Shown here: positions 1-17,875 of the stretch, piece by piece
Position numbering within the stretch: position 1 is the stretch's first letter
How the letters are laid out: every line of letters starts with the position of its first letter
Assembly: GCA_021373025.1 (NCBI GenBank)
Contig: JAJFTL010000036.1
Coordinates: forward strand, 1 to 18,133
DNA length: 18,133 bases
Source of the DNA: a bacterium
GTDB lineage: Bacteria > Caldisericota > Caldisericia > Cryosericales > Cryosericaceae
Direction of reading: 5' to 3'
The notes under the pieces: model-generated
The model's database searches: none
What the model saw: only the letters and a program-made list of their open reading frames with translations
What the model was told of the DNA's origin: nothing
Translations under genes and position numbers: made by a program

Positions 1-178
1 AGGCGTCGACAAGCGACTTGACGTTCTGGCCACTGCGATCTACTTTGGAGCCACTATCACAGACCTTGACAATCTGCAACTGGCCTACTCTCCTCCCTTT
101 GGATCTCCACGCGATGCTGTCAACATTGCCGGCTCAGTAGCTGAGGCTCGGCTCAAATCCAGAGAAAATGGATTGTAG
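1..178 (+). CDS. 3' fragment (C-terminal dimerisation domain) of an FAD-dependent pyridine nucleotide-disulfide oxidoreductase (NADH oxidase / CoA-disulfide reductase family). The 5' end lies outside the window.
   Basis: Frame-2 translation reads ...ATAIYFGATITDLDNLQLAYSPPFGSPRDAVNIAGSVAEARL* and ends at TAG 176-178. The L-x-L-A-Y-x-PPF-x-S-x-x-D-x-VN-x-AG pattern is the conserved C-terminal dimerisation motif of the Nox/CoADR family. The gene is convergent with pduS. Confidence 0.5.
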   Translation, partial: GVDKRLDVLATAIYFGATITDLDNLQLAYSPPFGSPRDAVNIAGSVAEARLKSRENGL

Positions 179-240
179 CCCGAGCATGCGCAGTTGCCTA
201 TACAGGAAAGCATCCAGCTCAGCTGTTACGTCTCAGGCTA

Positions 241-1617
241 TCAGGCTTCTATGACAACGACCTGGTCCGTCACCGAAGTAACGCGCCCGGAGATCGATGC
301 ATGAATACTTGCTCCAAGCTTGCCTTCAGCGGGGCTGCCAATCAACTGGCCTGTGGTTACTGTATCACCAACCGCTACCATGGGGACCGCAGGCACGCCG
401 ATGTGCTGTTTGAGACTGATGCTCACCCTGTCCGTACGCACGTCAGATTCATCCCAGTCGACAGGTCCAGCATGATACGCTCCAACGCCCAGACGGGCGA
501 CCAGGCGATCCGTAGGAACAAGCCTCCCTTCACGAAAGGCGTCTGGCGTGAGGTCTGTCCGGCGATGCACGTCATTCTTCCAGCCGGATGCTGCAAGCTC
601 GCGCTTTATCTTTTGGTAGAACTGCATGGGCGAAAGCTCGAGAGGGCAGGAGTAGGCCTCACAAAGACGACATTCGCAGCACAGGACTGCACTCGTGAGC
701 ACGTCATTTTTGACGTTGATGCCGTAGGCGCCAGCTCTCATGATCTCATGAGGGCTGAATCCATGACCAAGCAGGTGACGGGGGCAGAGGACGGTACAAT
801 CGCGGCATTGGTCGCAGCTCGCTTTGCCACGCCTGGTCCAGAGTTCGAGGGAGCGAGACATGAAGCGAACGACTTCATTCTCCACCGGGAGTACCAGGAT
901 GCCACCCGTGGTCTTGGTGATCGACTCCGTCTTCACGTCGGAAACGAGGTGCCCGGTCATGGGTCCGCCGACAACAACCCTGAGCTCATCTGCGCTACGC
1001 GTATAGCCGCCTGCCAGTTCGAGCACCTTGTCAAATGACATCCCTACAGGAACGTAGACAGTCTTGGGGGATTTGACCTCACCGTTGATCGTTACGTATC
1101 GGCGTGTCACTGGTATCCCTTCGTCAACCGCGCGTGCAATGTTGGCAAGCGTACCCACATTCTGCACGACACAGCCTACATTCAGAGGCAGCCCGGCCTC
1201 GGGGATAAGACGGCCTGTGACTTCGTAGACGAGACAGAACTCATCACCTGCTGGATACACGCTCTTCTCGATAATATAAAGGCTCACCGGCCATGCGTGT
1301 GCATCCTCAGAGTCCTTTTGACGCTCAAGTTCTGTTTCAAGTGCGGTGACAGCATGTGTATAGTGCGCCTTGACTGCAATAAGTCCGCGCTGCGCTCCTA
1401 CGGCCTGCATAACAAGTCGCATGCCACGGATGACGAGTTCGGGATGAGCCGCCATGAGCTGCTGGTCACACCGCAACATGGGTTCGCACTCAGCCCCGTT
1501 TGCAATGACGGTGTCCACATTCTTCGCAACAAGCTTCACGTGAGTTGGAAACCCGGCCCCTCCCGCTCCAACGATACCTGCTGCTTTGACGCGTTCTACG
1601 ATTTCTTCGGGAGTCAT
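241..1617 (-). CDS. pduS: PduS-like cob(II)alamin reductase / RnfC-family NADH:flavin Fe-S oxidoreductase
   Basis: 458 aa. The N-terminus has GAGGAGFPTHVK, the NADH/FMN-binding motif of the Complex1_51K, RnfC and PduS family. Two 4Fe-4S ferredoxin motifs follow (CDQCRDCTVLCP and CCECRLCEAYSCP). A C-terminal barrel domain is present, which is the PduS domain order. The start ATG overlaps the pduT stop as ATGA. Confidence 0.8.
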   Translation of the reverse strand: MTPEEIVERVKAAGIVGAGGAGFPTHVKLVAKNVDTVIANGAECEPMLRCDQQLMAAHPELVIRGMRLVMQAVGAQRGLIAVKAHYTHAVTALETELERQKDSEDAHAWPVSLYIIEKSVYPAGDEFCLVYEVTGRLIPEAGLPLNVGCVVQNVGTLANIARAVDEGIPVTRRYVTINGEVKSPKTVYVPVGMSFDKVLELAGGYTRSADELRVVVGGPMTGHLVSDVKTESITKTTGGILVLPVENEVVRFMSRSLELWTRRGKASCDQCRDCTVLCPRHLLGHGFSPHEIMRAGAYGINVKNDVLTSAVLCCECRLCEAYSCPLELSPMQFYQKIKRELAASGWKNDVHRRTDLTPDAFREGRLVPTDRLVARLGVGAYHAGPVDWDESDVRTDRVSISLKQHIGVPAVPMVAVGDTVTTGQLIGSPAEGKLGASIHASISGRVTSVTDQVVVIEA

Positions 1618-2165
1618 ATGATCTTTTCTCTGACCTGATCGGCAAGCTGTGAAATGACTGTCTTGCGGACAAGCAATCCATCTTCCGTCGGCCTGACGAT
1701 GCCGGCAGCGACTGACGCCTCGACGTCGGCGACTTCACCCTCCATGAGCAGGAAGCTCTTGCCCCCAAGTCCATTGGCGAGACGCAGCTCGAGCAAATTC
1801 ACTTCCGCCGCCTTGGCCGCCGCATCAGATGCCACAATGCACGACGCAGCAGTGACCGTTTCAATGATACCCAGCGCAGCCCCGTTTGTCGTTTCAGAAC
1901 TGAGATCCAGAGCAGAGAAAATTGCCGGATGAGCATTGGGCAGGAACAATGTATCCACGACGGATGCACCAGCTATCTGAACACCTGCTCGCAGAGCATT
2001 GCTGACCTGGCTCGTGTCGCCGCGGAACAGGACCATATACTTTCCAGGACAAATCGACCTGGCCTCAAGTAGCTCTACCGAAGCCCTCTTGACTGCTGCA
2101 TCTGCAGCTTCGATGCCTGCTGCAACACTGTCTGTCTCGATGAAGCCAATCGCTTTCTCAACCAT
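1614..2165 (-). CDS. pduT: PduT-like tandem-BMC-domain (BMC-T) shell protein with the Fe-S-ligating Cys
   Basis: About 183 aa with two BMC (Pfam PF00936-like) repeats: IGFIETDSVAAGIEAADAAVKRA and ALGIIETVTAASCIVASDAAAKAAEV. An SICPGKY motif matches the PduT TICPGKF motif holding the 4Fe-4S Cys. An ATG at 2165 is preceded by AGGAGG at 8 nt. The ORF track start at 2171 is a GTG two codons upstream. Confidence 0.75.
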   Translation of the reverse strand: MVEKAIGFIETDSVAAGIEAADAAVKRASVELLEARSICPGKYMVLFRGDTSQVSNALRAGVQIAGASVVDTLFLPNAHPAIFSALDLSSETTNGAALGIIETVTAASCIVASDAAAKAAEVNLLELRLANGLGGKSFLLMEGEVADVEASVAAGIVRPTEDGLLVRKTVISQLADQVREKII

Positions 2166-2233
2166 TGTCACTACCTCCTACCGAGCTCATGTTCTGCAGG
2201 GTCGAGCACTACATGCCCGCTTCATGCATGTTC

Positions 2234-3154
2234 TCACCACAACTGCGCGACTTCGCCCGCTATGTTGTTCATCGCAATACCAATGGGCGTCACGAACAGC
2301 GGCTCCCCTGGTATGATTGTCTCGATACCGGTAACTTCTTCAATGACACGGTCCATGCCAGGAAAACGTGCAGAACCTCCACACAGGTAGATCCGCTTGG
2401 GATGATAAGCCTCAACGTGACGCGATACAATGGTCGCGACTTTTTCCATAACTGCCTTGACAGCCGGGAAGAGCCTGGCCTGTTCAGCGGGATTCGTTTT
2501 GAGTGCCTCTGCATCCATGAATGGAATGTGCATAGCCCCAGCGACAACGAGGGTGAACTGCGTTCCGCCAGTTGGCTCATCCGCCGTATACACGACCTTG
2601 CCACCTTCAATGACGGCAAGCTTTGTCGTTCCACCACCAACGTCGACAACGACGCCGCTGTCGATCTGAAGGATCGTGTTTGCAGCAGTGGCTTCATCGA
2701 CAAGTCGGGAACATTCAATGCCGGCTCCCTGCAGCACGTTGCCTGTGGCACGCACTTCCGCTAGAGGAACGCCGGGCGGATAGGCCGTCGCAGCTGATTC
2801 GATCTTGCGTCCGATTCGCTCTTCCACCTGCTGTTTCAGCTTCCTGACGATGCTGATGGCGCCCATATAGTCAAACACGACTCCTTCCCGCACGACCTGA
2901 GCAAACTGGTAAGCGCCGGCAAGAGGTGTCATGTTTTCGTCCAGGACGACCAGGACCGTATAAGCAGTCCCAAGATCAACGCCAACATGTAGTTCGCCCT
3001 TGTATGATACCGACGGGGCGGGCGTTCCGGCATAGACGATGACCTTGTCGGCTTCATCGAGGACTTCCTGCAACCTCGGGTTCATGCCCCCCGACTCTGT
3101 TGCAAGCTTCAGGGCACTCCGCCTTTTCTCATCGACCCCTGACTGTATCATCAT
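2234..3154 (-). CDS. eutJ: EutJ, an actin/Hsp70-fold putative chaperonin of the eut operon
   Basis: 306 aa. The protein aligns along its length with E. coli EutJ, including the VGVDLGT phosphate-1 motif, DVGGGTT and LCGGSA motifs. The first ATG overlaps the pduO stop as ATGATGA. An alternative internal start (MNPRLQ) lies at 3085. Confidence 0.8.
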   Translation of the reverse strand: MMIQSGVDEKRRSALKLATESGGMNPRLQEVLDEADKVIVYAGTPAPSVSYKGELHVGVDLGTAYTVLVVLDENMTPLAGAYQFAQVVREGVVFDYMGAISIVRKLKQQVEERIGRKIESAATAYPPGVPLAEVRATGNVLQGAGIECSRLVDEATAANTILQIDSGVVVDVGGGTTKLAVIEGGKVVYTADEPTGGTQFTLVVAGAMHIPFMDAEALKTNPAEQARLFPAVKAVMEKVATIVSRHVEAYHPKRIYLCGGSARFPGMDRVIEEVTGIETIIPGEPLFVTPIGIAMNNIAGEVAQLW

Positions 3155-3690
3155 GCGTTATGTTCCTCTCCAGCTTCTTCATATCTTGCCAGTGCAAACA
3201 AGACATCCGAGGTTCTGTTGAGATATGCTGCCACGTTTTCGTTGGGAAGTTCACCAGACTCCATGAGGCCGATGACCCGCCGTTCTGCACGCCGGACGAC
3301 AGCGCGAGCCAGATCAATCGCAGCAGCTCCCACGGTCGCTCCCGGTATGATAAAGACGTTGGGCATGGACACCTTGCTCTCGATATCAACAATACATTGC
3401 TCGAGCTTTTTGACCATCTCTGCAGTGACAATCCACCCATGCTCCGCCAGCCTGTCATGGTACATGGGTTCCGTCGCCAGTTCGGCTGCCACAATACCAA
3501 GATCCTTCTGGATTCTGTCCAAGATCTCGCGAGAGTATTGTCGAACACACAGAGCCTTTGCGAGACCCAGTGTCGAGTTCAGTTCATCTATAGTTCCATA
3601 TGCTTCAGGCCGGGGGCTATTCTTGGAGACGCGCCCTCCATACAACAAACTCGTCTGTCCCTTGTCTCCAGCACCAATATTCGGTTTCAT
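3151..3690 (-). CDS. pduO: PduO-type ATP:cob(I)alamin adenosyltransferase
   Basis: 179 aa. The N-terminus GAGDKGQTSLLYGGRVSKNSPRPEAYGTIDELNS matches the PduO/MMAB family signature (TGDKG-TSL ... R-x-x-K ... E-x-YG-x-DEL). The size indicates the adenosyltransferase domain only, with no DUF336 extension. Confidence 0.85.
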   Translation of the reverse strand: MKPNIGAGDKGQTSLLYGGRVSKNSPRPEAYGTIDELNSTLGLAKALCVRQYSREILDRIQKDLGIVAAELATEPMYHDRLAEHGWIVTAEMVKKLEQCIVDIESKVSMPNVFIIPGATVGAAAIDLARAVVRRAERRVIGLMESGELPNENVAAYLNRTSDVLFALARYEEAGEEHNA

Positions 3691-3714
3691 GGTATGCTTT
3701 CTCTCCTTCCTGGT

Positions 3715-3759
3715 GGGCAGGACGAGACCTGCAATGACACAGTCCGTCTCCTCCTGCCC
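3715..3759 (-). promoter_or_regulatory. Intercistronic GC-rich stem-loop between the 67-aa ORF and pduO (13 bp with one mismatch, 16-nt loop, no U-tract)
   Basis: Minus-strand sequence: GGGCAGGAG-GAGAC-GGACTGTGTCATTGCAG-GTCTC-G-TCCTGCCC. The pduO SD AGGAAGGAGAG follows directly. Confidence 0.4.
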
Positions 3760-3783
3760 AAAGCTACAATCGGGGCATGCCGC

Positions 3784-3987
3784 CTATCCGAATGAGACGG
3801 GCGGGCGGGGAGGCCTGCAGGACTCGCTGTCTCCGGCCGATTCTTCGAAACGGATCTCCATACGCCACTGCTTGATAAAATCAGCAGCTGATGGAGAGAA
3901 GCGCGTGCCGACTGGAAAACACAGAACGATCCCTGTCTCCGGTCTCCGTATCTTGCTTCTTATTTCTGCTTCGGTAACGATTCGCAT
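3784..3987 (-). CDS. Small hypothetical protein (67 aa) carrying an EutQ N-terminal-like motif
   Basis: VTEAEIRSKIRRPETGIVLCFPVGTRFSPSAADFIKQWRMEI aligns position by position with the N-terminus of the EutQ in this window (ISKFDIERLKSEGQTVLHLEPGDTLTPLARDTALELGIKL). It also aligns with E. coli EutQ (LITANDIRAAHARGEQ...SIITPEAREVADLLGF). An SD GAGGAG lies 7 nt upstream of the ATG. The ORF sits in the gap between eutC1 and pduO. Confidence 0.4.
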   Translation of the reverse strand: MRIVTEAEIRSKIRRPETGIVLCFPVGTRFSPSAADFIKQWRMEIRFEESAGDSESCRPPRPPVSFG

Positions 3988-4001
3988 ACAGCTTCTCCTC
4001 G

Positions 4002-4050
4002 CCGGGCCTGCTGGCCCAGGGAGACCCAGCGGGCGAACTCCGGTTCGCCC
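4002..4050 (-). promoter_or_regulatory. Two consecutive GC-rich hairpins directly after the eutC1 stop (8-bp perfect stem GGGCGAAC/GTTCGCCC with a CGGA loop, then GGGCC-AGCA-GGCCC)
   Basis: Minus-strand sequence: TAG AAACAAACCGACCGACGC GGGCGAACCGGAGTTCGCCC GCTGGGTCTCC CTGGGCCAGCAGGCCCGG CGAGGAGAAGCTGT ATG. Confidence 0.4.
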
Positions 4051-4068
4051 GCGTCGGTCGGTTTGTTT

Positions 4069-4824
4069 CTACAGTTTGAGCGCGACGCCGCTCACCTTCT
4101 GCTCCAACATGCGCTTCGCGATATCAACAATCGTCGCTGCAGCTTCCATCGGGTTCAGGCCCTGGCTGTAGATGTTCGAGATACAGTTCCTTTCGCCATC
4201 AGTGTCAGTCATCTTTGCCTTATATGCCATGTAGGCGCTGAGACTGGTTTGAGTAACCAGGCCGGGCCGTTCACCGATCAGCATGATAGCGACGTCAGGC
4301 TGCAGAACACGGCACACGTCATTCAACAGACGAACACGACCATTGTCCACATAGAACGGTGTCCCAAATGTGATACCGGCAGCCTCAAAACCATGTTTCA
4401 AAGCTGGCAGCAGATCTGGCAGATTCTCCATGACAGCAGAAGACGAGAGTCCTTCACTGATAAACACCTGAACCTGCGCTCCCTTCTTGCAATGAGCAAG
4501 AATCGCTTCTTCAGCTTCCTTGGTGAGAATGCCACCTTTCTCGGGATGGGCGAGGTAATCGTGCTTGTCCGTACAGACTGTGGAAACGCGAAGCGCAACG
4601 CCATGCTCCGTCAGGAACTCGTCAGGGATCCTGGTCCAGATCGCATCCTTCGCCGATGCTTCATCAAGACGGAACGACAACCATGCATCCACGGGAGGCC
4701 TGGCTCCTACACGCCCCGTTGCAATACGTGCAGGAGTTGCTCGCATCATTCCTTCGATCGCTTCGCGGTTGTATGGATTCTTGACACCCATTGCCCTGTG
4801 CTCAAAACCTTTTAGTTCACCCAT
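4069..4824 (-). CDS. eutC: Ethanolamine ammonia-lyase small subunit EutC, copy 1 (short N-terminus)
   Basis: 251 aa. The conserved TPARIATGRVGARPP motif matches TPARIGVGRAGPRP in E. coli EutC. The C-terminal ERPGL...SAYMAYK region is conserved. It lies 15 nt downstream of eutB1. Confidence 0.85.
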   Translation of the reverse strand: MGELKGFEHRAMGVKNPYNREAIEGMMRATPARIATGRVGARPPVDAWLSFRLDEASAKDAIWTRIPDEFLTEHGVALRVSTVCTDKHDYLAHPEKGGILTKEAEEAILAHCKKGAQVQVFISEGLSSSAVMENLPDLLPALKHGFEAAGITFGTPFYVDNGRVRLLNDVCRVLQPDVAIMLIGERPGLVTQTSLSAYMAYKAKMTDTDGERNCISNIYSQGLNPMEAAATIVDIAKRMLEQKVSGVALKL

Positions 4825-4839
4825 TGTGGCCTCCTGTGC

Positions 4840-6228
4840 CTACCAGAGGAAGATGTCAGACGGCTCGGCGGAGAAGATGGACGGATCGCCAGCTCTGTCA
4901 GTGAGTTTGCCATTTTTCAGCAAGCCCATTCGTTCCATCCAGCGCTCAAACTCGGGAGCCGGGTGCCGGTCAAAGACCTCGCGCATCGAGGCGTCATCAT
5001 GGTTGCTCGTGTCCTGGTAGCTCAGCATGACATCGTCACCCATGGGGATACCCATGTAGTAGACAGCACCACCAATCCCAGCAAGCAGGTTCGCCATTTC
5101 CTGACCGTTATGGTTCATATCAACATGGTTGACATAGCAGGGTGCCATGCCCATCGGGAATCCATGCATCTTGCCGGCAAACAAGTCTTCAAGAGTGCCG
5201 TAGGCGATCTGGAAGGTATCAAGATGGGTCTCCGGCCCGATGAACCCAGTGACATTGTTCACACAGAAAGGTCGGAAGTGACGGCCGTATCCATAGGTGC
5301 GGGACTCAAGTGTCTGTTCGTCGCAGCCGAAATCAAGACCGACCGACATCTCGGAGCCTTGGCCGGTCTCGAAATACATAACGTTGGGGCCTGCGCAGAA
5401 GGAGTACTCGCGAGCAAGAGCCCATGCCTCTTCCATCATCTTGAGGTCGATGCCGAAGCCCTTGTTGGCTGGCTCACATCCGGCAATGCTCTGGAAGAAC
5501 AGACCGATGTGTGCGCCACGTTTGGCGGCTTCCATTTGGCCGGTGATGTGCCCAAGAGCTGAGTTCTGGGTAGGAATCTGCCACTTTTCGATGAGCCCAT
5601 ACGTCATCTCAAGGATGCGCACGAGTGTATCTGGAGTTGGATCCACTGGGTTGACGCCGATAACGACATCGCCCGCACCATAGGAAAGGCCGTCAAGAAT
5701 CGAGGCACGAATGCCGTCGATGTCGTCCGTCGGGTGGTTTGGTTGGTTGCGGAAGGACATCGTTCCAGGCAAACCAATAGTGGTGTTGGCCGTTGTCACG
5801 TTAATGATTTTCTTGGATGCAACGACCAGGTCCATGACCGACATGATACGGATAACAGCAGAGATCATTTCCGAGGTCAGCCCGACACGAATTCGTTGAA
5901 TGTCCTCGTTGGTAGTGTTCTGATCAAGCAGGTATCCACGCAGGTCGGCGACGGTCCAACCTTTGATCTTGTTGTAGATAGTCTTGTTCGTATCGTCGAT
6001 GATGACGCGCGTAACTTCGTCTGTCTCATAGGGGAGAACGGGGTTTTCGAAGATATCCTGAAGGGTCAGATTCGCTACAACCCACTTGGCCGCGATACGC
6101 TCGCGTTCGGATTGTGCTGCGACCCCGATCAATTCATCGCCGGACCGCTTCTCTGCCGATTTGGCAAGGACATCCTTCACAGACTTGAAGGAATACGCCT
6201 GTCCTTGCAGCGTTGTTGTGAGATTCAT
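4840..6228 (-). CDS. eutB: Ethanolamine ammonia-lyase large subunit EutB, copy 1 (the more divergent paralogue)
   Basis: 462 aa. PNHPTDD, LSYGAGDVVIGVNP, NVMYFETGQGSE, GFIGPE and GIPMGDDVMLSYQ are EutB TIM-barrel signatures. The region after GFIGPE diverges markedly from canonical EutB and from copy 2. Confidence 0.9.
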   Translation of the reverse strand: MNLTTTLQGQAYSFKSVKDVLAKSAEKRSGDELIGVAAQSERERIAAKWVVANLTLQDIFENPVLPYETDEVTRVIIDDTNKTIYNKIKGWTVADLRGYLLDQNTTNEDIQRIRVGLTSEMISAVIRIMSVMDLVVASKKIINVTTANTTIGLPGTMSFRNQPNHPTDDIDGIRASILDGLSYGAGDVVIGVNPVDPTPDTLVRILEMTYGLIEKWQIPTQNSALGHITGQMEAAKRGAHIGLFFQSIAGCEPANKGFGIDLKMMEEAWALAREYSFCAGPNVMYFETGQGSEMSVGLDFGCDEQTLESRTYGYGRHFRPFCVNNVTGFIGPETHLDTFQIAYGTLEDLFAGKMHGFPMGMAPCYVNHVDMNHNGQEMANLLAGIGGAVYYMGIPMGDDVMLSYQDTSNHDDASMREVFDRHPAPEFERWMERMGLLKNGKLTDRAGDPSIFSAEPSDIFLW

Positions 6229-6265
6229 ATATTACTCCTGATTGTGAGATTCATAGCTCCTCCTG
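6216..6265 (-). repeat. Tandem direct repeat (about 25-nt unit) duplicating the SD, ATG and first four codons of eutB1, creating a 9-codon leader ORF (MNLTIRSNI*) whose TGA overlaps the eutB1 ATG
   Basis: On the minus strand the sequence reads CAGGAGGAGCT ATG AAT CTC ACA ATC AGG AGT AAT ATA TGA. The eutB1 ATG (6228-6226) overlaps that TGA and continues AAT CTC ACA ACA ACG. The 13-mer TTGTGAGATTCAT occurs at 6216-6228 and again at 6242-6254. Confidence 0.6.
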
Positions 6266-6341
6266 AAACTCTCGGTTCCTGGTTGATACACAAATATCCT
6301 CGAACATCGAGGCCGCGGCTTCGATACCCCCTGCACGACCG

Positions 6342-7586
6342 CTACGGAACGATTGGACTTGGCGTCGTTTTGCCAAGTTTGATCGTCTCCTGGAATGGAC
6401 GCCAGAGGCCAGTGTTCTCATCACGACCCTGAAGAAGCACCACGCGAGCCGCACTTGCTTGGCCAGGAAGTGCCTCCTTATACAGCGATCCAATATCTCC
6501 ACCCTTCACTCGATTGATGAGGTAGATCAGCTTCGTCTGTGGAAACTGGGTCATCATCTCAAAGTCACCATCGCTGTCGCCGGCAACAAAGAGAGGAGCT
6601 TCTTTGATGAAGTTGCGAATGACCGTTGCTTTTCCCATGCGCTGGGTCAGTTCATAGCCGGGTTCTTCACTCAGCTTGGCAATGTACTTCCCGGACGCAT
6701 CCGTCTGGAGACGAACGCCAATCACATGGTCTTCAGGAACGTCGTACCCGTTGATTGCGGCAACTGCCTGGACGACCGGCTCAAATGATGCAGATACCAC
6801 CCACACCTTCCAGCCATAATACCGCTGTTTCGACATCATGTCGATGATGCCCTGGGAAAGGCGGATGCCTGCCCTATATGTATACGAGGCTACAGCGGCT
6901 TTTCGCTCAAGACCTGTTGGGGCATGCATAGTAATCTTCTCGATCTTACGAGCAAGTGCATCATTGAGTGCGGCGACTGCCATCTTCTGGACTTCCGCCT
7001 CGGTCATCCCTTCGCAGAGAAAACAGACCCAAGGATACGAGTACTCGGCACCAATCTCGGGAGTGTCTGTCAGCCCATCATACATGAATGGCAGTTTGAC
7101 CAGAAAATCCTGATACTCTGGTGTCGCCGTGATTTCCTCCAGCGTCATCTTCTTGAGACCGATATAGTTGTCATACAAAAAGGCATAGTCGGCCTGAATG
7201 TCCGAGGCGAGGTCCGCAAGAACCACATTGCCATAATCGGCCGAAAACTTCACAACATTGGAATCCTTGAGGGTCTTTCCTGCAGCTTCCGGGATAATGC
7301 TGTTGAAAGCTTCTTTACTCATTGCATAGTCCAGGTTGAACATCTGGAAACGGAACATCGTCTCCATGATGTCATTGTAGATGCACGTATTATCCCAGTC
7401 ATAGACGGCCACCGGATGCGTCGGACCATACTTCTTGATAAACCAGTCCGTATAGATCCAGTTAAACGGTGTATAGCCAACGTACGTTCCGGACGGAACG
7501 CCGGCTGCCAGGGTGATACCTGAAACCGATGAAACGAGCAGTGCGACAAGGAGCACAATCGATATGATCTTGATGGTTCGTTTCAT
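6342..7586 (-). CDS. Secreted or membrane-anchored HAD-superfamily hydrolase (HAD-IB-like with a large cap domain)
   Basis: The start is re-assigned to the ATG at 7586, which is preceded by a GGGGA SD. The N-terminus MKRTIKIISIVLLVALLVSSVSGITLAAG is a signal peptide or signal anchor. HAD motif I is VAVYDWDNT (DxDxT). Motif II is VWVVSAS. Motif IV is LFVAGDSDGDFEMM. The ORF track extends the frame to 7748 through an intergenic hairpin, which is unlikely to be real coding sequence. Confidence 0.7.
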   Translation of the reverse strand: MKRTIKIISIVLLVALLVSSVSGITLAAGVPSGTYVGYTPFNWIYTDWFIKKYGPTHPVAVYDWDNTCIYNDIMETMFRFQMFNLDYAMSKEAFNSIIPEAAGKTLKDSNVVKFSADYGNVVLADLASDIQADYAFLYDNYIGLKKMTLEEITATPEYQDFLVKLPFMYDGLTDTPEIGAEYSYPWVCFLCEGMTEAEVQKMAVAALNDALARKIEKITMHAPTGLERKAAVASYTYRAGIRLSQGIIDMMSKQRYYGWKVWVVSASFEPVVQAVAAINGYDVPEDHVIGVRLQTDASGKYIAKLSEEPGYELTQRMGKATVIRNFIKEAPLFVAGDSDGDFEMMTQFPQTKLIYLINRVKGGDIGSLYKEALPGQASAARVVLLQGRDENTGLWRPFQETIKLGKTTPSPIVP

Positions 7587-7631
7587 ATTGTTTCCCCTTT
7601 CGTTGGGATGGGGCGTGCCTGGCATGTGCAA

Positions 7632-7674
7632 TGAGACGAGGGTCAGTTCACAAGAGCAGGCCAACCCTCGCCTC
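7632..7674 (-). promoter_or_regulatory. 12-bp inverted repeat (one G·U wobble) with a 20-nt spacer, located 45 to 90 nt upstream of the HAD-hydrolase start codon
   Basis: Minus-strand sequence: TGAGGCGAGGGT tggcctgctcttgtgaactg ACCCTCGTCTCA. It could be a 5'-UTR hairpin or an operator-like palindrome. Confidence 0.3.
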
Positions 7675-7705
7675 AGGAAACAATGTAACTTGCTCCACAT
7701 GATAC

Positions 7706-7738
7706 CGCTGGCTCGGCCCGTTTCGGGATGGAGCCAGC
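7706..7738 (-). promoter_or_regulatory. Stem-loop following the eutQ stop (GCTGGCTC...GAGCCAGC outer stem with an inner CCCG-AAA-CGGG). Candidate U-tract-less terminator or processing site.
   Basis: Minus-strand sequence: TAG TTATTGAGATACA GCTGGCTC CAT CCCG AAA CGGG CC GAGCCAGC GGTATCATG. The outer stem is an 8-bp perfect stem enclosing a 4-bp inner hairpin. Nothing downstream is U-rich. Confidence 0.35.
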
Positions 7739-7751
7739 TGTATCTCAATAA

Positions 7752-8447
7752 CTAGGAGTTGATCTGCTCTGTCCAGTTGGACGGGAACGTAACGTAGAAG
7801 ATCTTGGTCCAGGTCGGGGTATTCCAGTGAACAGCAGAACCCTTGGGGATGAAGACACAATCACCACGATCTGCAACGAGCGTCTTCCCCTCGCACGTGA
7901 TCTCCATGCGACCCTCAACGACGTAATCAATCTCGTCATAGTTTAGTGTCCAGCTGAAGCCAGGCCCCTTGTGCCATGACATGAATCCACCGGAAATGCT
8001 GGCGGAGTCATCCATCGTAATCACGTCCAAAAGTCGGAAATCAATCTCTGGTGGATCTCTCCGGACGCCATCTTTGTCAATGAGCGGGGAGGATGGCATA
8101 TCGGCATCTTGTGGATACTTTGCCAATTTCAGCTGGCCAGGACGAGTGCCATAGACCTTCGGTGTTGAGCACGGAGGGCATGTTTCAGGCTGACCAGCCG
8201 GTCCAAGACGCTCAAGAACGGCCTTGACAATCGCCTCAAGCTTGTCCGCGCTTGGTGCAGGCGCAGTCGTCGGAGCAGGAGCGCTGCCATGAATCGGTTC
8301 TCTGGAGTCTTCAAGCTTGATGCCCAGCTCGAGCGCGGTATCACGAGCCAAAGGGGTCAAGGTGTCACCAGGCTCGAGATGGAGGACAGTTTGTCCTTCG
8401 CTCTTGAGTCTTTCAATGTCGAACTTTGAAATGATGCGCTTCTCCAT
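7752..8447 (-). CDS. eutQ: EutQ, a cupin-fold ethanolamine utilisation protein (acetate-kinase type)
   Basis: 231 aa. The C-terminal cupin GDCVFIPKGSAVHWNTPTWTKIFYVTFPSNW matches E. coli EutQ GDVMFIPKGSSIEF...YVAWPANW. The N-terminal I-x-x-x-DI...TPLARDTALELGI motif is typical of EutQ. A Pro/Ala-rich linker separates the two parts. Confidence 0.75.
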   Translation of the reverse strand: MEKRIISKFDIERLKSEGQTVLHLEPGDTLTPLARDTALELGIKLEDSREPIHGSAPAPTTAPAPSADKLEAIVKAVLERLGPAGQPETCPPCSTPKVYGTRPGQLKLAKYPQDADMPSSPLIDKDGVRRDPPEIDFRLLDVITMDDSASISGGFMSWHKGPGFSWTLNYDEIDYVVEGRMEITCEGKTLVADRGDCVFIPKGSAVHWNTPTWTKIFYVTFPSNWTEQINS

Positions 8448-8546
8448 ATTGAATTCTACCTCCCTAAAGTATCGGCCGGAACAACCGTCTCGTCATACAC
8501 CCGAGAGTGCTGGAGCGACAGTCGTCCGACTGAGGTCGGGTACCAG

Positions 8547-8846
8547 CTACTCAGCGTCGGCCGGCCGCTTCGGCAGCAACATTTCCGTGTCGCTGGCTGG
8601 ACGAGGGATAACATGAACCGAGACAAGTTCACCGACGCGCTGAGCGGCGGCTGCACCTGCATCGGTAGCAGCTTTGACAGCTCCGACGTCACCACGTACC
8701 ATAACGGTAACAAGTCCGGAACCGATTCGTTCCTGGCCAATCAGCTTGACGTTTGCTGCCTTGACCATGGCGTCGGCGGCCTCAATAGCTCCGACGAGTC
8801 CCTTGGTTTCAATCATGCCAAGTGCAATCATGCCTGGATCTGCCAT
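8547..8846 (-). CDS. eutM: BMC-H hexameric shell protein (EutM/PduA family)
   Basis: [32 protein letters not shown]...[32 protein letters not shown] is the canonical BMC domain. An ATG at 8846 is preceded by AAGGAG at 8 nt. The ORF track start at 8855 is a GTG. Confidence 0.85.
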
Positions 8847-8895
8847 AGGTATCACTCCTTTAAGAAAAAAATAGGAAAACTCTCTGGTTGTTGCT

Positions 8896-8921
8896 GCGTC
8901 CCCTGCTCGCGCAAGGGACGC
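8896..8921 (-). promoter_or_regulatory. Intercistronic hairpin between eutH and eutM (GCGTCCC...GGGACGC, about 7 to 10 bp). A T-rich stretch lies about 17 nt downstream.
   Basis: Minus-strand sequence: GCGTCCCTTGCGCGAGCAGGGGACGC, followed by AGCAACAACCAGAGAGTTTTCCTATTTTTTTCTTAAAGGAG ... ATG. Confidence 0.35.
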
Positions 8922-8935
8922 ATAGTCCCGAATTC

Positions 8936-10111
8936 TTAGGCTGCCACCGGTTCGCGGTAGTCAGCCTTCGGAGCAACCAGAGTTGCTATGATAAGACCGA
9001 GGATACCGGCAAAAAGCTTGCCGATGATTAACGGCCCGATAAACTCCTTCGCGTTAGCCGCCGTGAATCCGAGGTGGTCAGCAAAGGTGAAGGCTGCGGC
9101 AACCTGAAATGCCGCGTTGAGTACCTTTCCACGAGGTGTCATGTCCTTGAACATACCCCACATGGGAATGTTGTTCGCGAGCGTCGCAACAAGTCCTGCA
9201 GCGCCGACATTGTCCATACCCAGCATCCTGCCAAGAGAACTAAGGGGCTTTGCAAGAACGGTCGTCAGGAACTTTACCATTGGATAGGCACCAGCAAGAG
9301 CCAATGCAATGGAGCCAATGACTTCAAGACCTTCCATGACCATAGCCTGGGCCTCGGGATCATAGTGAGAGAACGTGGGGGACATGCCTTGGAGAATCGT
9401 TACGCCGGTCTGGGTCTGGAAGATGACAAGGCCAAGACCCACGAGGATGAAGCTGGTGATGAACTTGCCGAAGTAGATGAAGCCCTTGACCATTGCTTCG
9501 CGCGCAAACAGAAGACCTGCAGCGATCAGAGCTGCAACAATGAAGACGGGAACAAGGTAGGCAAGGGACAGCCCGAAGGGATTGCCTGCCAGAACACTCT
9601 GAAGCAACGCACCAAACGGGGCAACGATGATGCCAGCCAGAATACCAAGCGCCAGATACTTGCGATCTTTTGCTTCAATGATACCAAGTCCGACAGGGAT
9701 GTTGAAGACGATGTTGACACCGAAAACGGAGCCCAGGAGCAGACCACCGAAGTAACCGACCCAGACAGGATCGCCGGCGGTCTTGGCAAGCTGGAGACCG
9801 AGGGGCGTTGCACCCATGTCGATAGCCAGCAGTGTGCCAGCGAACATGGCGGTCTTGGAGCCAAGAGCAGTGTAGATCGGGCCAACCACCGGGATCAGCC
9901 ACTTGCCAAGCAATGGAGTCATTGCGATGATTCCAACCATGGCAAGCGCCAGGGGGCCCATGGCGTTGAAGCCATTCTCCATCTCTGCACCAAAACCATC
10001 AATAATCGGAACCTTCCAGTCTGGAGCCCAATATTTGATGATCCTGTCGATAATGCCAAGAACTGCGAAGATTGCCATGATCCACAATACTACTTTGCTA
10101 ATTGCAGCCAT
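8936..10111 (-). CDS. eutH: EutH ethanolamine permease
   Basis: About 391 aa polytopic membrane protein with many hydrophobic helices, in the EutH family context between eutE and eutM. The start is re-assigned to the ATG at 10111 ([15 protein letters not shown]...), which is preceded by AGGAAGGGG. The ORF track extends a further 44 codons to 10243. Confidence 0.8.
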
Positions 10112-10273
10112 TACTACACCCCTTCCTTTGCATGAGAGTATGGTATATTGCACAGCCAACGTACTATTCCAACTAGTCGGAATCTCACTTTTCTGTTCTG
10201 TCCAGGCCTTGCCTCCTCTCCGGCCACTGCAGTCACTGCCCATTTGGCCGTCACAGCGTCACGTTCTTCCATC

Positions 10274-11773
10274 CTACCCCTTGTGCGCCAGTTCCTCGCG
10301 GATCACCTTGCGCACCATTGCCTCGATCTCTGACGTAGATGGCTTTTCAGATGTCGCCGAGGCAGCTGGAGCGGAAACGGACGATGACCTGCGCCCATCT
10401 ACGATGGGTGGTTCAAACGGCCGCAGTCCATACGCGATGCGTTTCACATTGAACAGGTGATACACCGTGATGTTGTCACTGCTGATACCACCACCCATAC
10501 CACCAGTAGCCAGGGTCAACGAGGGCATGAGGCCGGTCGTGTACCCAATGGCGCCGCCTGTGGTGCCGGCGTTGACAATGATACGGAATGCAGGTTTCTG
10601 AAGCCCGAACTGCATGATGATGTCCTCATCAGTGCAGTGTAATCCCATCGTGTGTCCCTTGCCGCCAAACTCAAGTATCTCGATGCACCGCGCACACCCA
10701 GCGTGCCACCCGTCCTCGACAAAAAAAGCAACCACGGGGGCAAGCTTCTCGCGCGAAAGAGGGACCTTTGGACCAACTTCGGAGAGCCTGGCGACCAGAA
10801 TGCGTGCCTCGTCAGGAACCTTGAATCCGGCTTGTTCGGCCAGCACCTGTGGTGAGCGCCCTACAAAGTTGGCCTGCATGAGTCCGTTCGAACGGATCAT
10901 GGCTTTGCCCAGCTTGTCAGCCTGCTCATCTGACAAGAAGTATGCCCCGTTTCTCTCCAGGGCTTTCACAAGCTGGTCGGCGATCGGTTTGTCTGCAATG
11001 ATGGCATTCTCATGAGCACAGATGACCGCGTGGTCAAAGTTGACGCTGGTCACAATGTCATGAGCTGCCTTCTCGATGTCCGCGCTGCGATCGACGTAGA
11101 GCGGAACGTTACCAGGACCGACGCCGAGTGCCGGTTTGCCTACGCTGTGCGCGTATGAAACCATGGCTTCGCCACCGGTTGCAACAATCAGCTTGATCTC
11201 GGGCCGCTTGAGCAGCTCCGATGTTCCTTCCATGCTGATGTGTGTCATGCAGCTGATGAGGCCCTTGGGGGCTCCAGCAGCCTCTGCCGCCTCTTCTAGA
11301 ATGCGAACCGCCTCAGCGGTACACTTCGGGGCCGAAGGGTGTGGAAGAATAATGATAGCATTGCGCGCCTTGACGGCGGTAATCGCATTGAAGATTGCTG
11401 TGGATGTCGGGTTGGTCGTGGGGACCATAGCGGCAATGACACCAAAGGGCCAGGCGATCTCGATGATCTTATTGGCTTCATCACGTCTGATAACGCCCTC
11501 TGTCCGAACATCCTTGATGGACATCCATACGTTCTTCGATGCAAACTGGTTTTTGATCGTCTTGTGCTCAGCGACACCCATGTGCGTCTCTTCGGCTGCC
11601 ATGCGGCCAAGACGCTCTGCTGCTTCGTATGCAGCTTCAGCCATCGATGCACAGACGACGTCAACCTGGTATTGGTTAAAGTGAACAAATGCTTCCTGCG
11701 CGACCTCAGCCTGCTGTGCCAGATTTCGGGCCTCTTGAATAGAGAGCAGGTCTTGGTCGAGTTCTTCCGGCAT
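10274..11773 (-). CDS. eutE: EutE/PduP-type CoA-acylating aldehyde dehydrogenase with a C-terminal encapsulation-peptide-like helix
   Basis: 499 aa with an ALDH fold. The catalytic-Cys region reads VNFDHAVICAHENAII. The ATGGEAMV region typical of acylating ALDHs is present. After the catalytic domain comes an S/A-rich linker (RRSSSVSAPAASATSEKPSTS), then an amphipathic helix EIEAMVRKVIREELAHKG at the extreme C-terminus. An SD AAGAGGAGG lies upstream. Confidence 0.9.
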   Translation of the reverse strand: MPEELDQDLLSIQEARNLAQQAEVAQEAFVHFNQYQVDVVCASMAEAAYEAAERLGRMAAEETHMGVAEHKTIKNQFASKNVWMSIKDVRTEGVIRRDEANKIIEIAWPFGVIAAMVPTTNPTSTAIFNAITAVKARNAIIILPHPSAPKCTAEAVRILEEAAEAAGAPKGLISCMTHISMEGTSELLKRPEIKLIVATGGEAMVSYAHSVGKPALGVGPGNVPLYVDRSADIEKAAHDIVTSVNFDHAVICAHENAIIADKPIADQLVKALERNGAYFLSDEQADKLGKAMIRSNGLMQANFVGRSPQVLAEQAGFKVPDEARILVARLSEVGPKVPLSREKLAPVVAFFVEDGWHAGCARCIEILEFGGKGHTMGLHCTDEDIIMQFGLQKPAFRIIVNAGTTGGAIGYTTGLMPSLTLATGGMGGGISSDNITVYHLFNVKRIAYGLRPFEPPIVDGRRSSSVSAPAASATSEKPSTSEIEAMVRKVIREELAHKG

Positions 11774-11801
11774 GTTCTGCCTCCTCTTACAGATCTCCGC
11801 C

Positions 11802-11821
11802 CCGGTTCAGACTCAAACCGG
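11802..11821 (-). promoter_or_regulatory. Intercistronic hairpin between eutL and eutE (CCGGTT-TGAGTCTG-AACCGG)
   Basis: 6-bp perfect stem with an 8-nt loop. The strong eutE SD AAGAGGAGG follows. Confidence 0.3.
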
Positions 11822-11865
11822 AACGCCTATCAGAAACGACGTCGTGCGAGTTGCAGAACACTACT

Positions 11866-12540
11866 CTACTGGAAGGCCAGCGGGTCCTGGGCCACAGACA
11901 TGATGGCCTCATCGAACGCACGGCAGGCGGCACGGCAAGCACTCTGTGTGCCGACCAGATAAGCGCCCTGATAGTTGGTCTCACTGAGCTGCGTGAATGC
12001 GCCAACTGATACATCAGCAGCCTTCAATGCCCGCTCCATCGCATAGGTACCTTCAAGAGGCGGTGCAGTGATGTATGCAATCGGTGTGCCGGCTGGAACT
12101 CCGGCCTCCTTCGAGAGATATGTGCCGGTACGGGAGATTGTGTACGCCAGCCAGACCAGTGTGGGCACAACACTAAAGTGCGGCATTGTGACCGTCGAGT
12201 ATCGCAGCGAGTCCACAAACTCGAAGACTGCATTGATCCCCGCAGTAGCTTCTGCAGGATTTGGCGCCGCCAGGAAAAGCATAGCTTCGCCCGAAATGGG
12301 ACCAGACGGGTAGCTACCACCAGCGAAGTGCGAGCGGCAGTATGCTACACGGACCTCGGCTTTCTTGGTCGCTTCATCTCCGCCGATATACAGCGGATCA
12401 TCGATATTGCAGGTGAACATTGCCAGACTCTTCTCACCTTCGAGGAGACCCAGTGTCTTGGCCATGTCGGGATGAACATTGGGAATGAGTCTCACCGACA
12501 GGATTTCTGGCTTCAGGGTACGTTCCATCTCTAGAGCCAT
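11866..12540 (-). CDS. eutL: EutL, a tandem-domain BMC-T shell protein
   Basis: 224 aa. It aligns along its length with E. coli EutL, including IGGDEATKKAEVRVAY, GPNPAEATAG, VSRTGTYLS, YITAPPLE and GTQSACRAACRAF. An SD GGAAGGAG lies upstream. Confidence 0.85.
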   Translation of the reverse strand: MALEMERTLKPEILSVRLIPNVHPDMAKTLGLLEGEKSLAMFTCNIDDPLYIGGDEATKKAEVRVAYCRSHFAGGSYPSGPISGEAMLFLAAPNPAEATAGINAVFEFVDSLRYSTVTMPHFSVVPTLVWLAYTISRTGTYLSKEAGVPAGTPIAYITAPPLEGTYAMERALKAADVSVGAFTQLSETNYQGAYLVGTQSACRAACRAFDEAIMSVAQDPLAFQ

Positions 12541-12690
12541 GTCATTTTACTCCTTCCTAATACTCGTTCTCAGGTTGCCCGGAACATCTCTTGAGACTAT
12601 TCCAGACCCTTCGACGGAATCCAGCAGCCGGTCCCGGGGCAGATCCCAGGATCGTGGAATCGACCCCAGGGACCGGTGATTACTACCGTA
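12541..12690 (-). promoter_or_regulatory. 150-nt structured eutC2-eutL intergenic region containing a long GC-rich inverted repeat, nested short palindromes and a twice-repeated GGATTCC motif
   Basis: Minus-strand sequence: CACCGGTCCCTGGGG TCGATTCCACGATCCTGGGATCT GCCCCGGGACCGG (about 12-bp imperfect stem), then CTGGATTCCGTCGAAGGGTCTGGAATAG. The eutL SD GGAAGGAG follows. No U-tract and no recognisable riboswitch consensus was found. Confidence 0.3.
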
Positions 12691-13557
12691 CTAAGCTCTC
12701 TTCGCAGTGGCGAGTGCAACGCCGCTGGTCTTGTACTTCAGGTAATCCTTGACAAGAGCGACTGCCTCAGCAGCTGCTTCGATCGGGTCCTTGCCGCGCT
12801 TGGAGATCATGCAGATGTTGTCGCGGTTAGCATCGGTCGTGAGCGGCTCCCAACGAGGCTTGTAGCCCATGTAGATGGAGAGTGCATCAGAGATGATGAG
12901 ACCCGGGCGCTCGCCAATCAGTACGACGACGACCTCTGCGTTCAGGAGCGCTCCAACATCATTCATGATGCCGACGCGTGCGCGGTTGACATAGATCGGG
13001 GTACCGATATTGATGCCGGCAGCCTTGAGTCCATCAATCATTGCATTCAGGACGTCCTTGGCGGAATGCTCGATGGCGTATCCACTCAGGCCGTTGCTGA
13101 CAACAAACTGAACGGTCGGGTTCTTGGCACACTTCTCAAGAACGACGGCCTTGGCCTCGTCACTCAGCTTTCGGCCAAGCGGAGGAAAGCGCAGATAGGT
13201 CTCAAGAGAGCCATTTGCAGCAGTCTCGCCGACATGTAGGAGTCCCATTGCCGTAACGGTCTCTTCTGGAATAACGTACTTCAATGAGTCCTGTGTAGCA
13301 GCATGGTCCGCTCGCATCTGGAAATACGTGAGCAGCTTTGGACGGGGACCGTTGCGACCAACGCAAATGCGAAGAGGTGTCGCATGGATGAGGGCCTTTG
13401 CGCCTTCAGGATCGACCGGATGATCGATGCCAACAGTTTCGCGAGCCTCTGTCGTCGTCACATCGGTCACGTCACAGCTGAACTTGGCAGCTTCGTCGCG
13501 CCTTGCTACAATGTCAGCCTGGCTCTGCTTTCCAACGTAAAGTTCGTATGTAGCCAT
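12691..13557 (-). CDS. eutC: Ethanolamine ammonia-lyase small subunit EutC, copy 2 (with an N-terminal extension of roughly 50 aa)
   Basis: 288 aa. The ATPLRICVGRNGPRP motif and the C-terminal GERPGL...SIYMGYKP region are conserved. It lies 15 nt downstream of eutB2. Confidence 0.85.
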   Translation of the reverse strand: MATYELYVGKQSQADIVARRDEAAKFSCDVTDVTTTEARETVGIDHPVDPEGAKALIHATPLRICVGRNGPRPKLLTYFQMRADHAATQDSLKYVIPEETVTAMGLLHVGETAANGSLETYLRFPPLGRKLSDEAKAVVLEKCAKNPTVQFVVSNGLSGYAIEHSAKDVLNAMIDGLKAAGINIGTPIYVNRARVGIMNDVGALLNAEVVVVLIGERPGLIISDALSIYMGYKPRWEPLTTDANRDNICMISKRGKDPIEAAAEAVALVKDYLKYKTSGVALATAKRA

Positions 13558-13572
13558 GTCTACTCTCCTTTC

Positions 13573-14940: not shown

Positions 14941-14952
14941 GTTTCCTCCTTG

Positions 14953-16422: not shown

Positions 16423-16435
16423 GAATACACCTCTC

Positions 16436-17233
16436 TTACTTTTCTGCTTTGTGATTGTTCTTTCTTGCAGCATCGTTTTTGTCAACAAACAGATATGCCT
16501 TCAGTGACGTAACCAATGCCTTCTTTGCCCCCTGCACTTTCTTGAGTTCCTCGACTGAACCGAATGGTCCCTGCTGCTCACGAAACTCGACAATGCGCTC
16601 CGCAAGTGCAGGACCCACACCGGGCAAGGCATCAAGCTGACTTGCTGTTGCCGTGTTCAGATTGACTCGCTTTCCCGGGGTCCTGGACACCGGCTGTTGC
16701 GCAGCAAGAGAGAAGTCCGCGTGAGCGGGCTGGATGGGCGATCGTATAGGAGCGGTTTCCCCTGCGGGCACTGTGCTCACCTTCTGTTCCGCAGGAATCG
16801 CGGCTTCTTCTGCTGAAGCTGTCAATGCCTGTGCGCCGGGCTCAGCAGGCGTTTTGACCGAAGGTGACGCATCCATGCTTCCGGGTACCGGAGTCGTGCC
16901 GGGTGCAGGACTCGCTCCCTCGCCAACGGGGAGTCCAAGGTTCCTGTTCATCGCATCGACGATCATATCAATGTCGCGATCTGGACGTGGAATGACGTGA
17001 ATGGACACCAATTCCCCCACCCGCTGCGCAGCGGCTGCCCCTGCATCCGTGGCTGCCTTCACTGCTCCAACATCGCCACGAACAGCAACCGTCACCAGGC
17101 CGTCTCCAGAGTATCCCTTCCCGACAAGCCGCACATTGGCGGACTTGACCATGGCATCTGCCGCCTCAATGGCACCAATAAGCCCCCTGGTCTCAATCAA
17201 CCCCAACGCAACAAGCTTTTCGCTGTCAGGCAT
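16436..17233 (-). CDS. BMC-H shell domain fused by a long P/A/S/T-rich linker to a C-terminal ComEA-like helix-hairpin-helix domain
   Basis: Residues 1 to about 90 form a canonical BMC domain ([32 protein letters not shown]...[13 protein letters not shown]), about 80% identical to the eutM product. An approximately 90-residue low-complexity linker follows. Residues from about 185 read [55 protein letters not shown]. This matches the ComEA C-terminal HhH repeat region (INLNTA..EL..LPGIGP..A..I..YRE.NG.F.S.EDL..V.GIG...L..L). The second HhH lacks the GIG motif. Confidence 0.8.
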
Positions 17234-17271
17234 GGTACCCCATCCTCAGCCTACCGTTCAGTAGAGCCCGG

Positions 17272-17565: not shown

Positions 17566-17875
17566 GATTTCAATCCTCCCAATACACCAAGTTCATACAT
17601 CCAGGTTCGCCAATCCCGTCCTTGGGTTGTCGTGTCAATCACACGAGTTCCCAGCGCATCATATCCTCGGTGCAAACAGAAGCATTCTGAAAACGCAAAC
17701 TCAAGGTTCGCAATCTGTGGGCTTTCCCCACTCCAAGAATCGCCCTTCCGTGAGCAGTCTACACTGAAACTCTCATTGTGTCAACACTACGCATCGACAC
17801 CGCCACGTTAGCAGCGAATCTGCGTACAACTGCTGTGATTTGCTCTCATCCATCAGGTGCTTGGAGTGGCGATCA

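Follow-up and report, generated by a model that had tools for sequence, protein, structure and literature searches.

Encapsulation peptides are amphipathic helices of ~18 residues found, with a flexible linker, at a terminus of cargo enzymes. The classical examples (residues 1–19 of EutC and the N-termini of EutE and PduP) mediate association with bacterial microcompartments (BMCs), and in EutC of Escherichia coli and Salmonella the peptide is carried by an N-terminal extension (PMC12487888). In the ethanolamine-utilization (Eut) BMC of Salmonella, residues 9–41 of EutQ (H1/H2) bind the shell at the EutM/EutL interface, residues 62–99 (H3/H4) bind the encapsulation peptides of EutC and EutE, and residues 1–99 are enough to direct green fluorescent protein to BMCs (PMC12487888, Sci Adv 2025). 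The EutQ-EutM pull-down depends on residues 1–100 (PMC4827028). It was not until 2025 that this shell role was assigned to the EutQ N-terminus. Here we report on ORF67, a 67-residue open reading frame (ORF) at positions 3784–3987 (minus strand, stop codon included) of an 18,133-nucleotide stretch of DNA from a Caldisericota bacterium (contig JAJFTL010000036.1, positions 1 to 18,133; hereafter the window), which translation and Pfam and NCBIfam scans identify as a single long minus-strand eut BMC operon. A preliminary description of the window had presented ORF67 as a stand-alone protein resembling EutQ's N-terminal region, and the association of that region with shell proteins, which the description had mentioned, has since been shown in Salmonella by the studies cited above. 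While the function of the EutQ N-terminus is already published, what is new is the free-standing form of the EutQ/EutT N-terminal BMC-association module.

Affiliation of ORF67 with the N-terminal domain of EutT

By Smith-Waterman alignment against shuffled sequences, ORF67 matches residues 4–47 of E. coli EutT with z = 8.4. A family-profile HMMER search, exhaustive over 1.84 billion representatives, yielded 55 hits at E < 1e-3, most of which are proteins of 200–330 residues with the domain at residues 1–50. When 49 of the 55 hits were scanned, 27 matched the NCBIfam EutT equivalog, seven matched TIGR02536 and three matched EutQ; the C-terminal parts of the hits match the catalytic region of E. 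coli EutT (best E = 8e-25), and none is of the PduO type. So that this result would not be circular, another 118 proteins of the EutT type were retrieved with a profile that represents catalytic regions only, the N-domain having been removed. All 118 possess the domain, which starts at residues 1–3 and precedes the catalytic domain. The hidden Markov model (HMM) built from their first 56 residues (EutT-N) gives 80.4 bits for ORF67 (z = 38, with none of 500 shuffles as good) and 35 bits for the N-terminus of E. coli EutT, while hhalign aligns the free-standing copies with EutT-N at 99.9% probability (E = 2e-32). Applied to all six-frame segments of the window, the EutT-N HMM has its top match in ORF67 (E = 1.8e-23), and the only other notable one, to the EutQ N-terminus, comes second (E = 0.026); this N-terminus (EutQ residues 4–47, positions 8307–8438, minus strand) is the only other copy of the superfamily in the window.

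No Pfam or NCBIfam family matches ORF67 above threshold. The sole lead from these collections is a weak match to the EutT N-terminus, in which residues 4–52 of ORF67 align with positions 5–52 of the NCBIfam EutT model NF011595 (E = 0.074; 12.1 bits versus the cut-off of 226), and PF01923 gives no match, so that ORF67 does not qualify as a full-length EutT. None of the curated models scanned, including those of Pfam, covers the EutT N-domain alone. Since the polypeptide ends at 67 residues and contains no EutT catalytic domain, it represents a free-standing variant of the domain and not an EutT. Judged by its sequence, ORF67 is a free-standing EutT N-terminal domain of ~48 residues followed by a short disordered tail; the domain spans residues 2–49 (positions 3841–3984, minus strand) according to the EutT-N HMM, hhalign and AlphaFold2 (AF2), and is predicted to adopt a βαββαβ topology. 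The same domain makes up the N-terminal ~50 residues of EutT (NF011595; E. coli b2459 and Salmonella EutT), which is also encoded in BMC loci, and the two share the signature ITEaeLR ... P.G.R(F/L)(S/T)P(S/A)A.DF. Unlike EutT, ORF67 lacks the catalytic domain (PF01923 and a Cys-rich motif) and is a separate gene with a PduO-type enzyme next to it. In the literature searched, we found no function assigned to the EutT N-domain.

The link of ORF67 to EutQ holds only transitively, because the comparison of EutT-N with EutQ-N is significant while the direct comparison is not. Against 2000 shuffles, Smith-Waterman alignment of ORF67 gives z = 1.8 (p ~ 0.06) with the N-terminus of the window EutQ and z = 1.1 with that of E. 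coli EutQ. The register of the position-by-position alignment given in the preliminary description is thus sound, but the alignment is not significant by itself. The same description had proposed scoring the ORF with a profile of EutQ N-termini. Such an HMM, built from 12 cupin-anchored N-termini (ten from a full-length EutQ search and those of the window and E. coli EutQ), scores ORF67 at -0.7 bits, which 18 of 200 and 50 of 500 shuffles equal or beat, and a direct assignment to EutQ-N fails. Likewise, hhalign gives 32% probability (P = 4.7e-4) for the free-standing copies versus EutQ-N, but 94.8% probability (E = 5.3e-8) for EutT-N versus EutQ-N, and the N-termini of E. coli EutQ and E. coli EutT align pairwise with z = 6.4 against shuffles. 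EutT-N and EutQ-N are, by these comparisons, remote homologues or paralogues. The original placement of ORF67 was probably correct with regard to the remote superfamily, whereas the family itself is that of the EutT N-terminal domain. Its statement that ORF67 lacks the cupin domain agrees with the scans, as no match to the EutQ cupin (PF06249/NF012001) was found at E ≤ 1 in Pfam and NCBIfam.

The AF2 models of ORF67 and of the window EutQ N-terminus have the order and spacing of their predicted secondary structure elements (βαββαβ) in common. In ORF67 (predicted local distance difference test score, pLDDT, ~88), strands are predicted at residues 3–4, 21–25, 29–30 and 44–48 and helices at residues 6–12 and 32–41; the corresponding elements of EutQ are strands at residues 5–6, 21–24, 29–30 and 44–47 and helices at residues 8–16 and 32–40. 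A (S/T)P.A motif where helix 2 starts is shared by ORF67 and EutQ-N. A search of the PDB by sequence gave no match at E ≤ 10.

Among the relatives of ORF67, H1/H2 of EutQ (Salmonella residues 9–41), a probable remote homologue via EutT-N with the same predicted topology, is the only one with an experimentally assigned function, i.e., shell binding (PMC12487888). Beyond this region, EutQ has a flexible linker, then H3/H4, which bind cargo, and an acetate-kinase cupin, none of which is present in ORF67. The TIGR02536 "eut_hyp" proteins contain a domain of the same superfamily and are also non-enzymatic proteins of BMC loci. They differ from ORF67 in being multi-repeat proteins of 230–255 residues, with three tandem copies in P0063, P0064 and P0069, and in having an encapsulation-peptide-like C-terminal helix; ORF67 has a single copy of the domain and no match to TIGR02536 at E ≤ 1. 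Encapsulation peptides are, like ORF67, short and non-catalytic, but they are single amphipathic helices on cargo enzymes, whereas AF2 predicts ORF67 to be a folded α/β unit with a proline-rich, non-helical tail, encoded by its own gene and with no enzyme attached.

Maintenance of ORF67 as a gene

ORF67 starts with ATG and is preceded by a Shine-Dalgarno sequence, GAGGAG (positions 3995–4000, minus strand), 7 nucleotides ahead of the start codon. In a DNA alignment of the window with five related loci, GAGGAG is unchanged in all six while the surrounding intergenic DNA is divergent, and the coding region varies at third positions. Fifteen homologues of 67–68 residues with 78–100% identity to ORF67 were found in Cryosericum/Caldisericota metagenome-assembled genomes (MAGs), and a MAG of Candidatus Cryosericum sp. 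has a protein on record that is 100% identical to ORF67. The loci with P0010, P0012, P0014 and P0015 share the order EutB2, EutC2, ORF, PduO-type ATP:cob(I)alamin adenosyltransferase (ACAT), EutJ, PduT and PduS, in which EutB2 and EutC2 are the second EutB and EutC of the operon. The ratio of nonsynonymous to synonymous substitution rates (dN/dS, Nei-Gojobori) is 0.10–0.23 for the whole gene, 0.06–0.11 for residues 1–49 and 0.27–0.53 for the tail, with synonymous sites near saturation between the more distant pairs. These features indicate that ORF67 is a translated and selectively maintained gene, consistent with the earlier view of a stand-alone small protein with its own Shine-Dalgarno sequence.

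The domain is otherwise found as the first ~50 residues of EutT, and a frameshifted variant occurs in one short metagenome contig (P0016), both of which would fit a remnant, without function, of a eutT gene that was split or truncated. It is very improbable that ORF67 is such a remnant, given the low dN/dS of the domain, the conservation, between lineages with near-saturated synonymous sites, of its start codon, Shine-Dalgarno sequence and length, and the presence of free-standing copies in at least three locus types and in three phyla. The P0016 variant, from a 622-bp contig, is 77 residues long and agrees with ORF67 for 27 residues before it diverges; the divergence most likely reflects a frameshift or an assembly error rather than a second isoform.

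The C-terminal tail (residues 50–67, positions 3787–3840, minus strand) is predicted to be disordered, with pLDDT values of 51–61 and no secondary structure. It ends in a lineage-specific motif, PPRPPVSF (positions 3790–3813, minus strand), which is conserved among the Caldisericota copies, where P63 never varies and R61, P62 and S65 hardly do, and is absent from more distant free-standing copies. Homology of this motif to the WDKPxxFPV found after the linker in many EutTs was considered and rejected, as only the Caldisericota copies have the motif and so short a match does not allow a test. A read-through fusion of ORF67 with the ACAT was rejected as well: the two are in frame with each other in the window, whereas in L001 they are not, as the spacing there differs by 2 mod 3, and the shared frame is consequently a coincidence.

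In the databases, the 67-residue homologues are named cobalamin adenosyltransferase by the Joint Genome Institute (JGI) and hypothetical protein otherwise. The JGI name is an over-annotation. The present analysis corrects both annotations of the mini-protein and defines a domain family for which Pfam has no model.

Genomic contexts of the domain and its possible role

For the survey of genomic contexts, one genome per species was used, and the resulting 26 loci were annotated against the Eut proteins of the window and of E. coli. Three arrangements were found. In the first, from Anaerolineae and other Chloroflexi, the domain is fused to the EutT catalytic domain in the order EutE, EutM, EutQ and the fusion protein, often followed by a cupin gene, and EutJ. 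In the second, from Caldisericota and two Anaerolineales MAGs, it is free-standing in the order EutB, short EutC, mini-ORF, PduO-type ACAT, EutJ, PduT and PduS. In the third, from Anaerolineae, other Chloroflexi and Acidobacteriota, the copies stand free in BMC loci that are not of the eut kind, where the order is BMC-H, mini-ORF and EutJ-like and where no B12 enzyme, adenosyltransferase or EutBC is encoded. The preliminary description had suggested a search of other BMC loci for similar mini-ORFs, and they do occur in Anaerolineales eut loci as well as in non-eut BMC loci. In each of the three arrangements, the neighbor that recurs downstream of the domain is an EutJ-like gene. Relatives of the domain are also fused to a Pta-like protein and occur in the TIGR02536 repeat proteins. 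The domain is restricted to BMC loci and is independent of the EutT catalytic part.

In the fully annotated non-eut example, L015, the spacers around the mini-ORF are 6–9 nucleotides long, and the locus further carries genes for DeoC, a HAD protein, M29 peptidases, an aldehyde dehydrogenase, a thiolase and three paralogues of EutN. The non-eut copies form a subfamily of 77–91 residues (L015 6001–6249, identical with L026; L031–L034; L037; and L038) with the tail ...HYSEDG.PYL..KWKNVQ in five of seven; L031 and L032 have the HYSE core only, and L026 is without it. In P0026, P0027, P0040 and P0047, an EutQ-N-type copy is followed by a linker helix and then by an EutT-N-type copy, and in P0040 an EutT catalytic domain comes after these tandem copies. 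Thus, as classified by sequence, both module subtypes coexist within single polypeptides.

As H1/H2 of Salmonella EutQ dock to the shell, we propose with moderate confidence that ORF67, a maintained gene for a free EutT-N domain, most likely acts in trans as a shell-docking or assembly module of the microcompartment. The EutT-N/ORF67 module would dock to shell proteins by the same kind of activity as EutQ H1/H2, and the docking module would have been kept as a gene of its own where a PduO-type enzyme took the place of the EutT catalytic domain or this domain disappeared. More speculatively, ORF67 may anchor a protein that lacks a targeting sequence of its own, with the PduO-type ACAT as the first candidate and EutJ or the extension-less EutB2C2 as alternatives. 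The partner might, speculatively, be held via the tail of ORF67 or the edge of its β-sheet, and ORF67 and its partner may together, as separate polypeptides, regain what EutT achieves as a single one, which is again more speculative.

Several points weigh against a shell-docking role of ORF67. Shell binding is carried over from a remote paralogue, with the direct match between the ORF67 family and EutQ-N reaching only P = 4.7e-4. ORF67 has neither H3/H4 helices of the EutQ type nor an amphipathic encapsulation peptide, which offers no explanation of how it would connect another component to the shell, and the sole candidate for a second interface is the proline-rich tail motif conserved within Caldisericota only. 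No solved structure resembling the domain was found, nor one of any member of the family. As for EutT itself, it is not listed among the proteins imaged in the Salmonella study (PMC12487888), and no statement on its location was found in the searched papers that mention EutT. A Rosetta-stone search for fusions of the domain with a PduO-type ACAT gave none among the 55 significant hits, so that the partnership with the ACAT is argued from gene adjacency; the one TIGR00636 match among the scanned hits is explained by EutT and PduO being related members of PF01923.

The EutT catalytic domain is absent from the Cryosericum-type eut locus, and the gene directly downstream of ORF67 (positions 3151–3690, minus strand) encodes an ACAT of 179 residues that is of the PduO type (PF01923, 9.5e-47; TIGR00636 PduO_Nterm, 1.8e-42) and not of the EutT type. 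The adjacency of mini-ORF and ACAT is kept in Caldisericota, the two Anaerolineales MAGs and the P0017 lineage, in which a protein 67% identical to ORF67 lies between EutC and the ACAT, i.e., in the core order, on a short contig. ORF67 might be an accessory subunit of the adenosyltransferase that acts in trans on the PduO-type enzyme, by cobalamin or ATP handling or by oligomerization, and does not bind the shell. Enzymes of the EutT type consistently have the domain at their N-terminus, in eut loci without EutT it is always encoded directly upstream of a PduO-type ACAT and the JGI annotation itself reads cobalamin adenosyltransferase. We nevertheless regard this function as unlikely. PduO/TIGR00636 enzymes are established to be complete without such a domain, the ACAT of the window has no terminal extension, the domain occurs free in BMC loci without a B12 enzyme and its relatives are joined to partners as varied as EutQ cupins, Pta-like proteins and TIGR02536 repeat proteins. 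The spread over non-B12 loci and varied fusions fits a compartment-related rather than a corrinoid-related role.

The gene directly upstream of ORF67 encodes EutC2 (251 residues, positions 4069–4824, minus strand). The Pfam EutC profile begins at residue 21 of EutC2 and at residue 53 of the 288-residue EutC of the same operon, and an N-terminal extension of ~37 residues is present in the latter and missing from EutC2, as the preliminary description had noted. It had gone on to suggest that ORF67 is a free EutQ-N-like adaptor that brings the extension-less second lyase, EutB2C2, to the shell. This fits the fact that the encapsulation peptide of E. coli and Salmonella EutC lies in that extension (PMC12487888) and that the order short EutC to mini-ORF is kept in Caldisericota, in Anaerolineales UBA2200 and UBA6131 and in the P0017 and P0019 contigs. 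However, ORF67 belongs with EutT-N and does not score above chance with the EutQ-N profile, nothing in it corresponds to the cargo-binding H3/H4 of EutQ and the enzyme to which the domain is fused elsewhere is an adenosyltransferase, not a lyase. Moreover, free-standing copies are also found in BMC loci without any EutBC or adenosyltransferase, so that in general the role of the domain cannot be specific to the lyase. A lyase adaptor of the EutQ-N type is therefore quite unlikely.

The recurrent EutJ-like neighbor allows yet another reading. The EutJ-like actin/Hsp70-fold ATPase of the window (positions 2234–3154, minus strand; NF011660 EutJ, 4.3e-98) is encoded downstream of the ACAT, whose stop codon overlaps the EutJ start by 4 nucleotides (positions 3151–3154, minus strand), an overlap that points to translational coupling between the two. 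ORF67 could be a partner of this ATPase, for example by recruiting EutJ to the shell, with the link to the adenosyltransferase being incidental. An EutJ-like gene lies downstream in all three contexts, including the closely spaced order BMC-H, mini-ORF and EutJ-like of the non-eut loci. We judge this improbable, as the evidence consists of adjacency, the E. coli genes eutT and eutJ do not lie next to each other and, in Salmonella, EutJ is found in the cytosol and BMCs assemble without it (PMC12487888).

Going further, it is possible, though less probable than not, that the EutT/EutQ N-module is an autonomous and portable shell-docking domain, which in its free 7-kDa form would work in trans either as an adaptor for untargeted proteins, i.e., the PduO-type ACAT, EutJ or the peptide-less second lyase, or as a structural "glue" that non-eut BMCs kept after the adenosyltransferase was lost. 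Such a module, if real, would also account for the encapsulation of EutT itself. That all 118 EutTs retrieved have the paralogous N-module, and that the module was repeatedly kept as a small gene after the catalytic part of EutT was replaced or lost, provides a testable hypothesis for EutT targeting. With ~50 residues, this natural minimal unit may also be considered as a possible shell-docking tag for BMC engineering.

Operon organization and flanking hairpins

In the direction of transcription, the genes encode EutN, a BMC-H protein whose C-terminal domain is a helix-hairpin-helix, EutA, EutB, EutC (288 residues), EutL, EutE, EutH and EutM. They are followed by those for EutQ, a HAD-IB protein, the second EutB, the second EutC (251 residues), ORF67, the PduO-type ACAT, EutJ, a PduT-like shell protein and a PduS/RnfC-like flavoprotein.

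The preliminary description placed ORF67 between two GC-rich hairpins, and the folds computed for the coding strand bear this out. Upstream, between EutC2 and ORF67, the intergenic region at positions 3988–4071 folds with -43.8 kcal/mol (z = -4.07) and contains two GC-rich hairpins (positions 4029–4052 and 4004–4017, minus strand). Downstream, between ORF67 and the ACAT gene, the region at positions 3688–3786 folds with -38.8 kcal/mol (z = -2.6) and contains another GC-rich hairpin (positions 3716–3759, minus strand). In L001, L005 and L009, the first upstream hairpin is kept with altered sequence, and the site of the downstream hairpin also holds hairpins with different arm sequences; among the relatives, the arms vary in compensatory fashion. 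Neither hairpin region has a T-run and no intrinsic terminator was found on the coding strand around ORF67, and the hairpins were rejected as canonical terminators. An Rfam scan of positions 3500–4300 gave no match, and the flanking hairpins do not belong to a described RNA family. Within the operon, they could serve as elements for mRNA processing, mRNA stability or the tuning of translation.

The two EutBC pairs of the operon (positions 4840–6228 and 4069–4824 versus positions 13573–14940 and 12691–13557, all on the minus strand) have 49% identity between the EutBs and 39% between the EutCs, and the duplication is kept across the Caldisericota loci compared. The BMC-H shell protein at positions 16436–17233 (minus strand) continues through a low-complexity linker of ~100 residues into a ComEA-type helix-hairpin-helix at its C-terminus (PF12836 HHH_3, 3.5e-20), which is reminiscent of the nucleic-acid-binding tail of EutK, although the fold differs. 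The HAD-IB hydrolase (positions 6342–7748, minus strand), encoded between EutQ and the second EutB, has a hydrophobic, signal-peptide-like N-terminus (MKRTIKIISIVLLVALLV...). In related loci, a 414-residue gene is kept at the same place. It is an odd occupant of a eut BMC operon, and a HAD gene is also found in the non-eut BMC locus L015.

Finally, the EutQ of the window (positions 7752–8447, minus strand) is predicted to have an amphipathic helix at residues 67–80 (DKLEAIVKAVLERL), after its N-domain. This helix is similar to the C-terminal tail (EIEAMVRKVIREEL) of EutE (positions 10274–11773, minus strand) and to the linker helices of the tandem-domain proteins P0027, P0040 and P0047. The EutQ helix, the EutE C-terminus and the tandem-protein linkers all resemble encapsulation peptides, in unusual positions.

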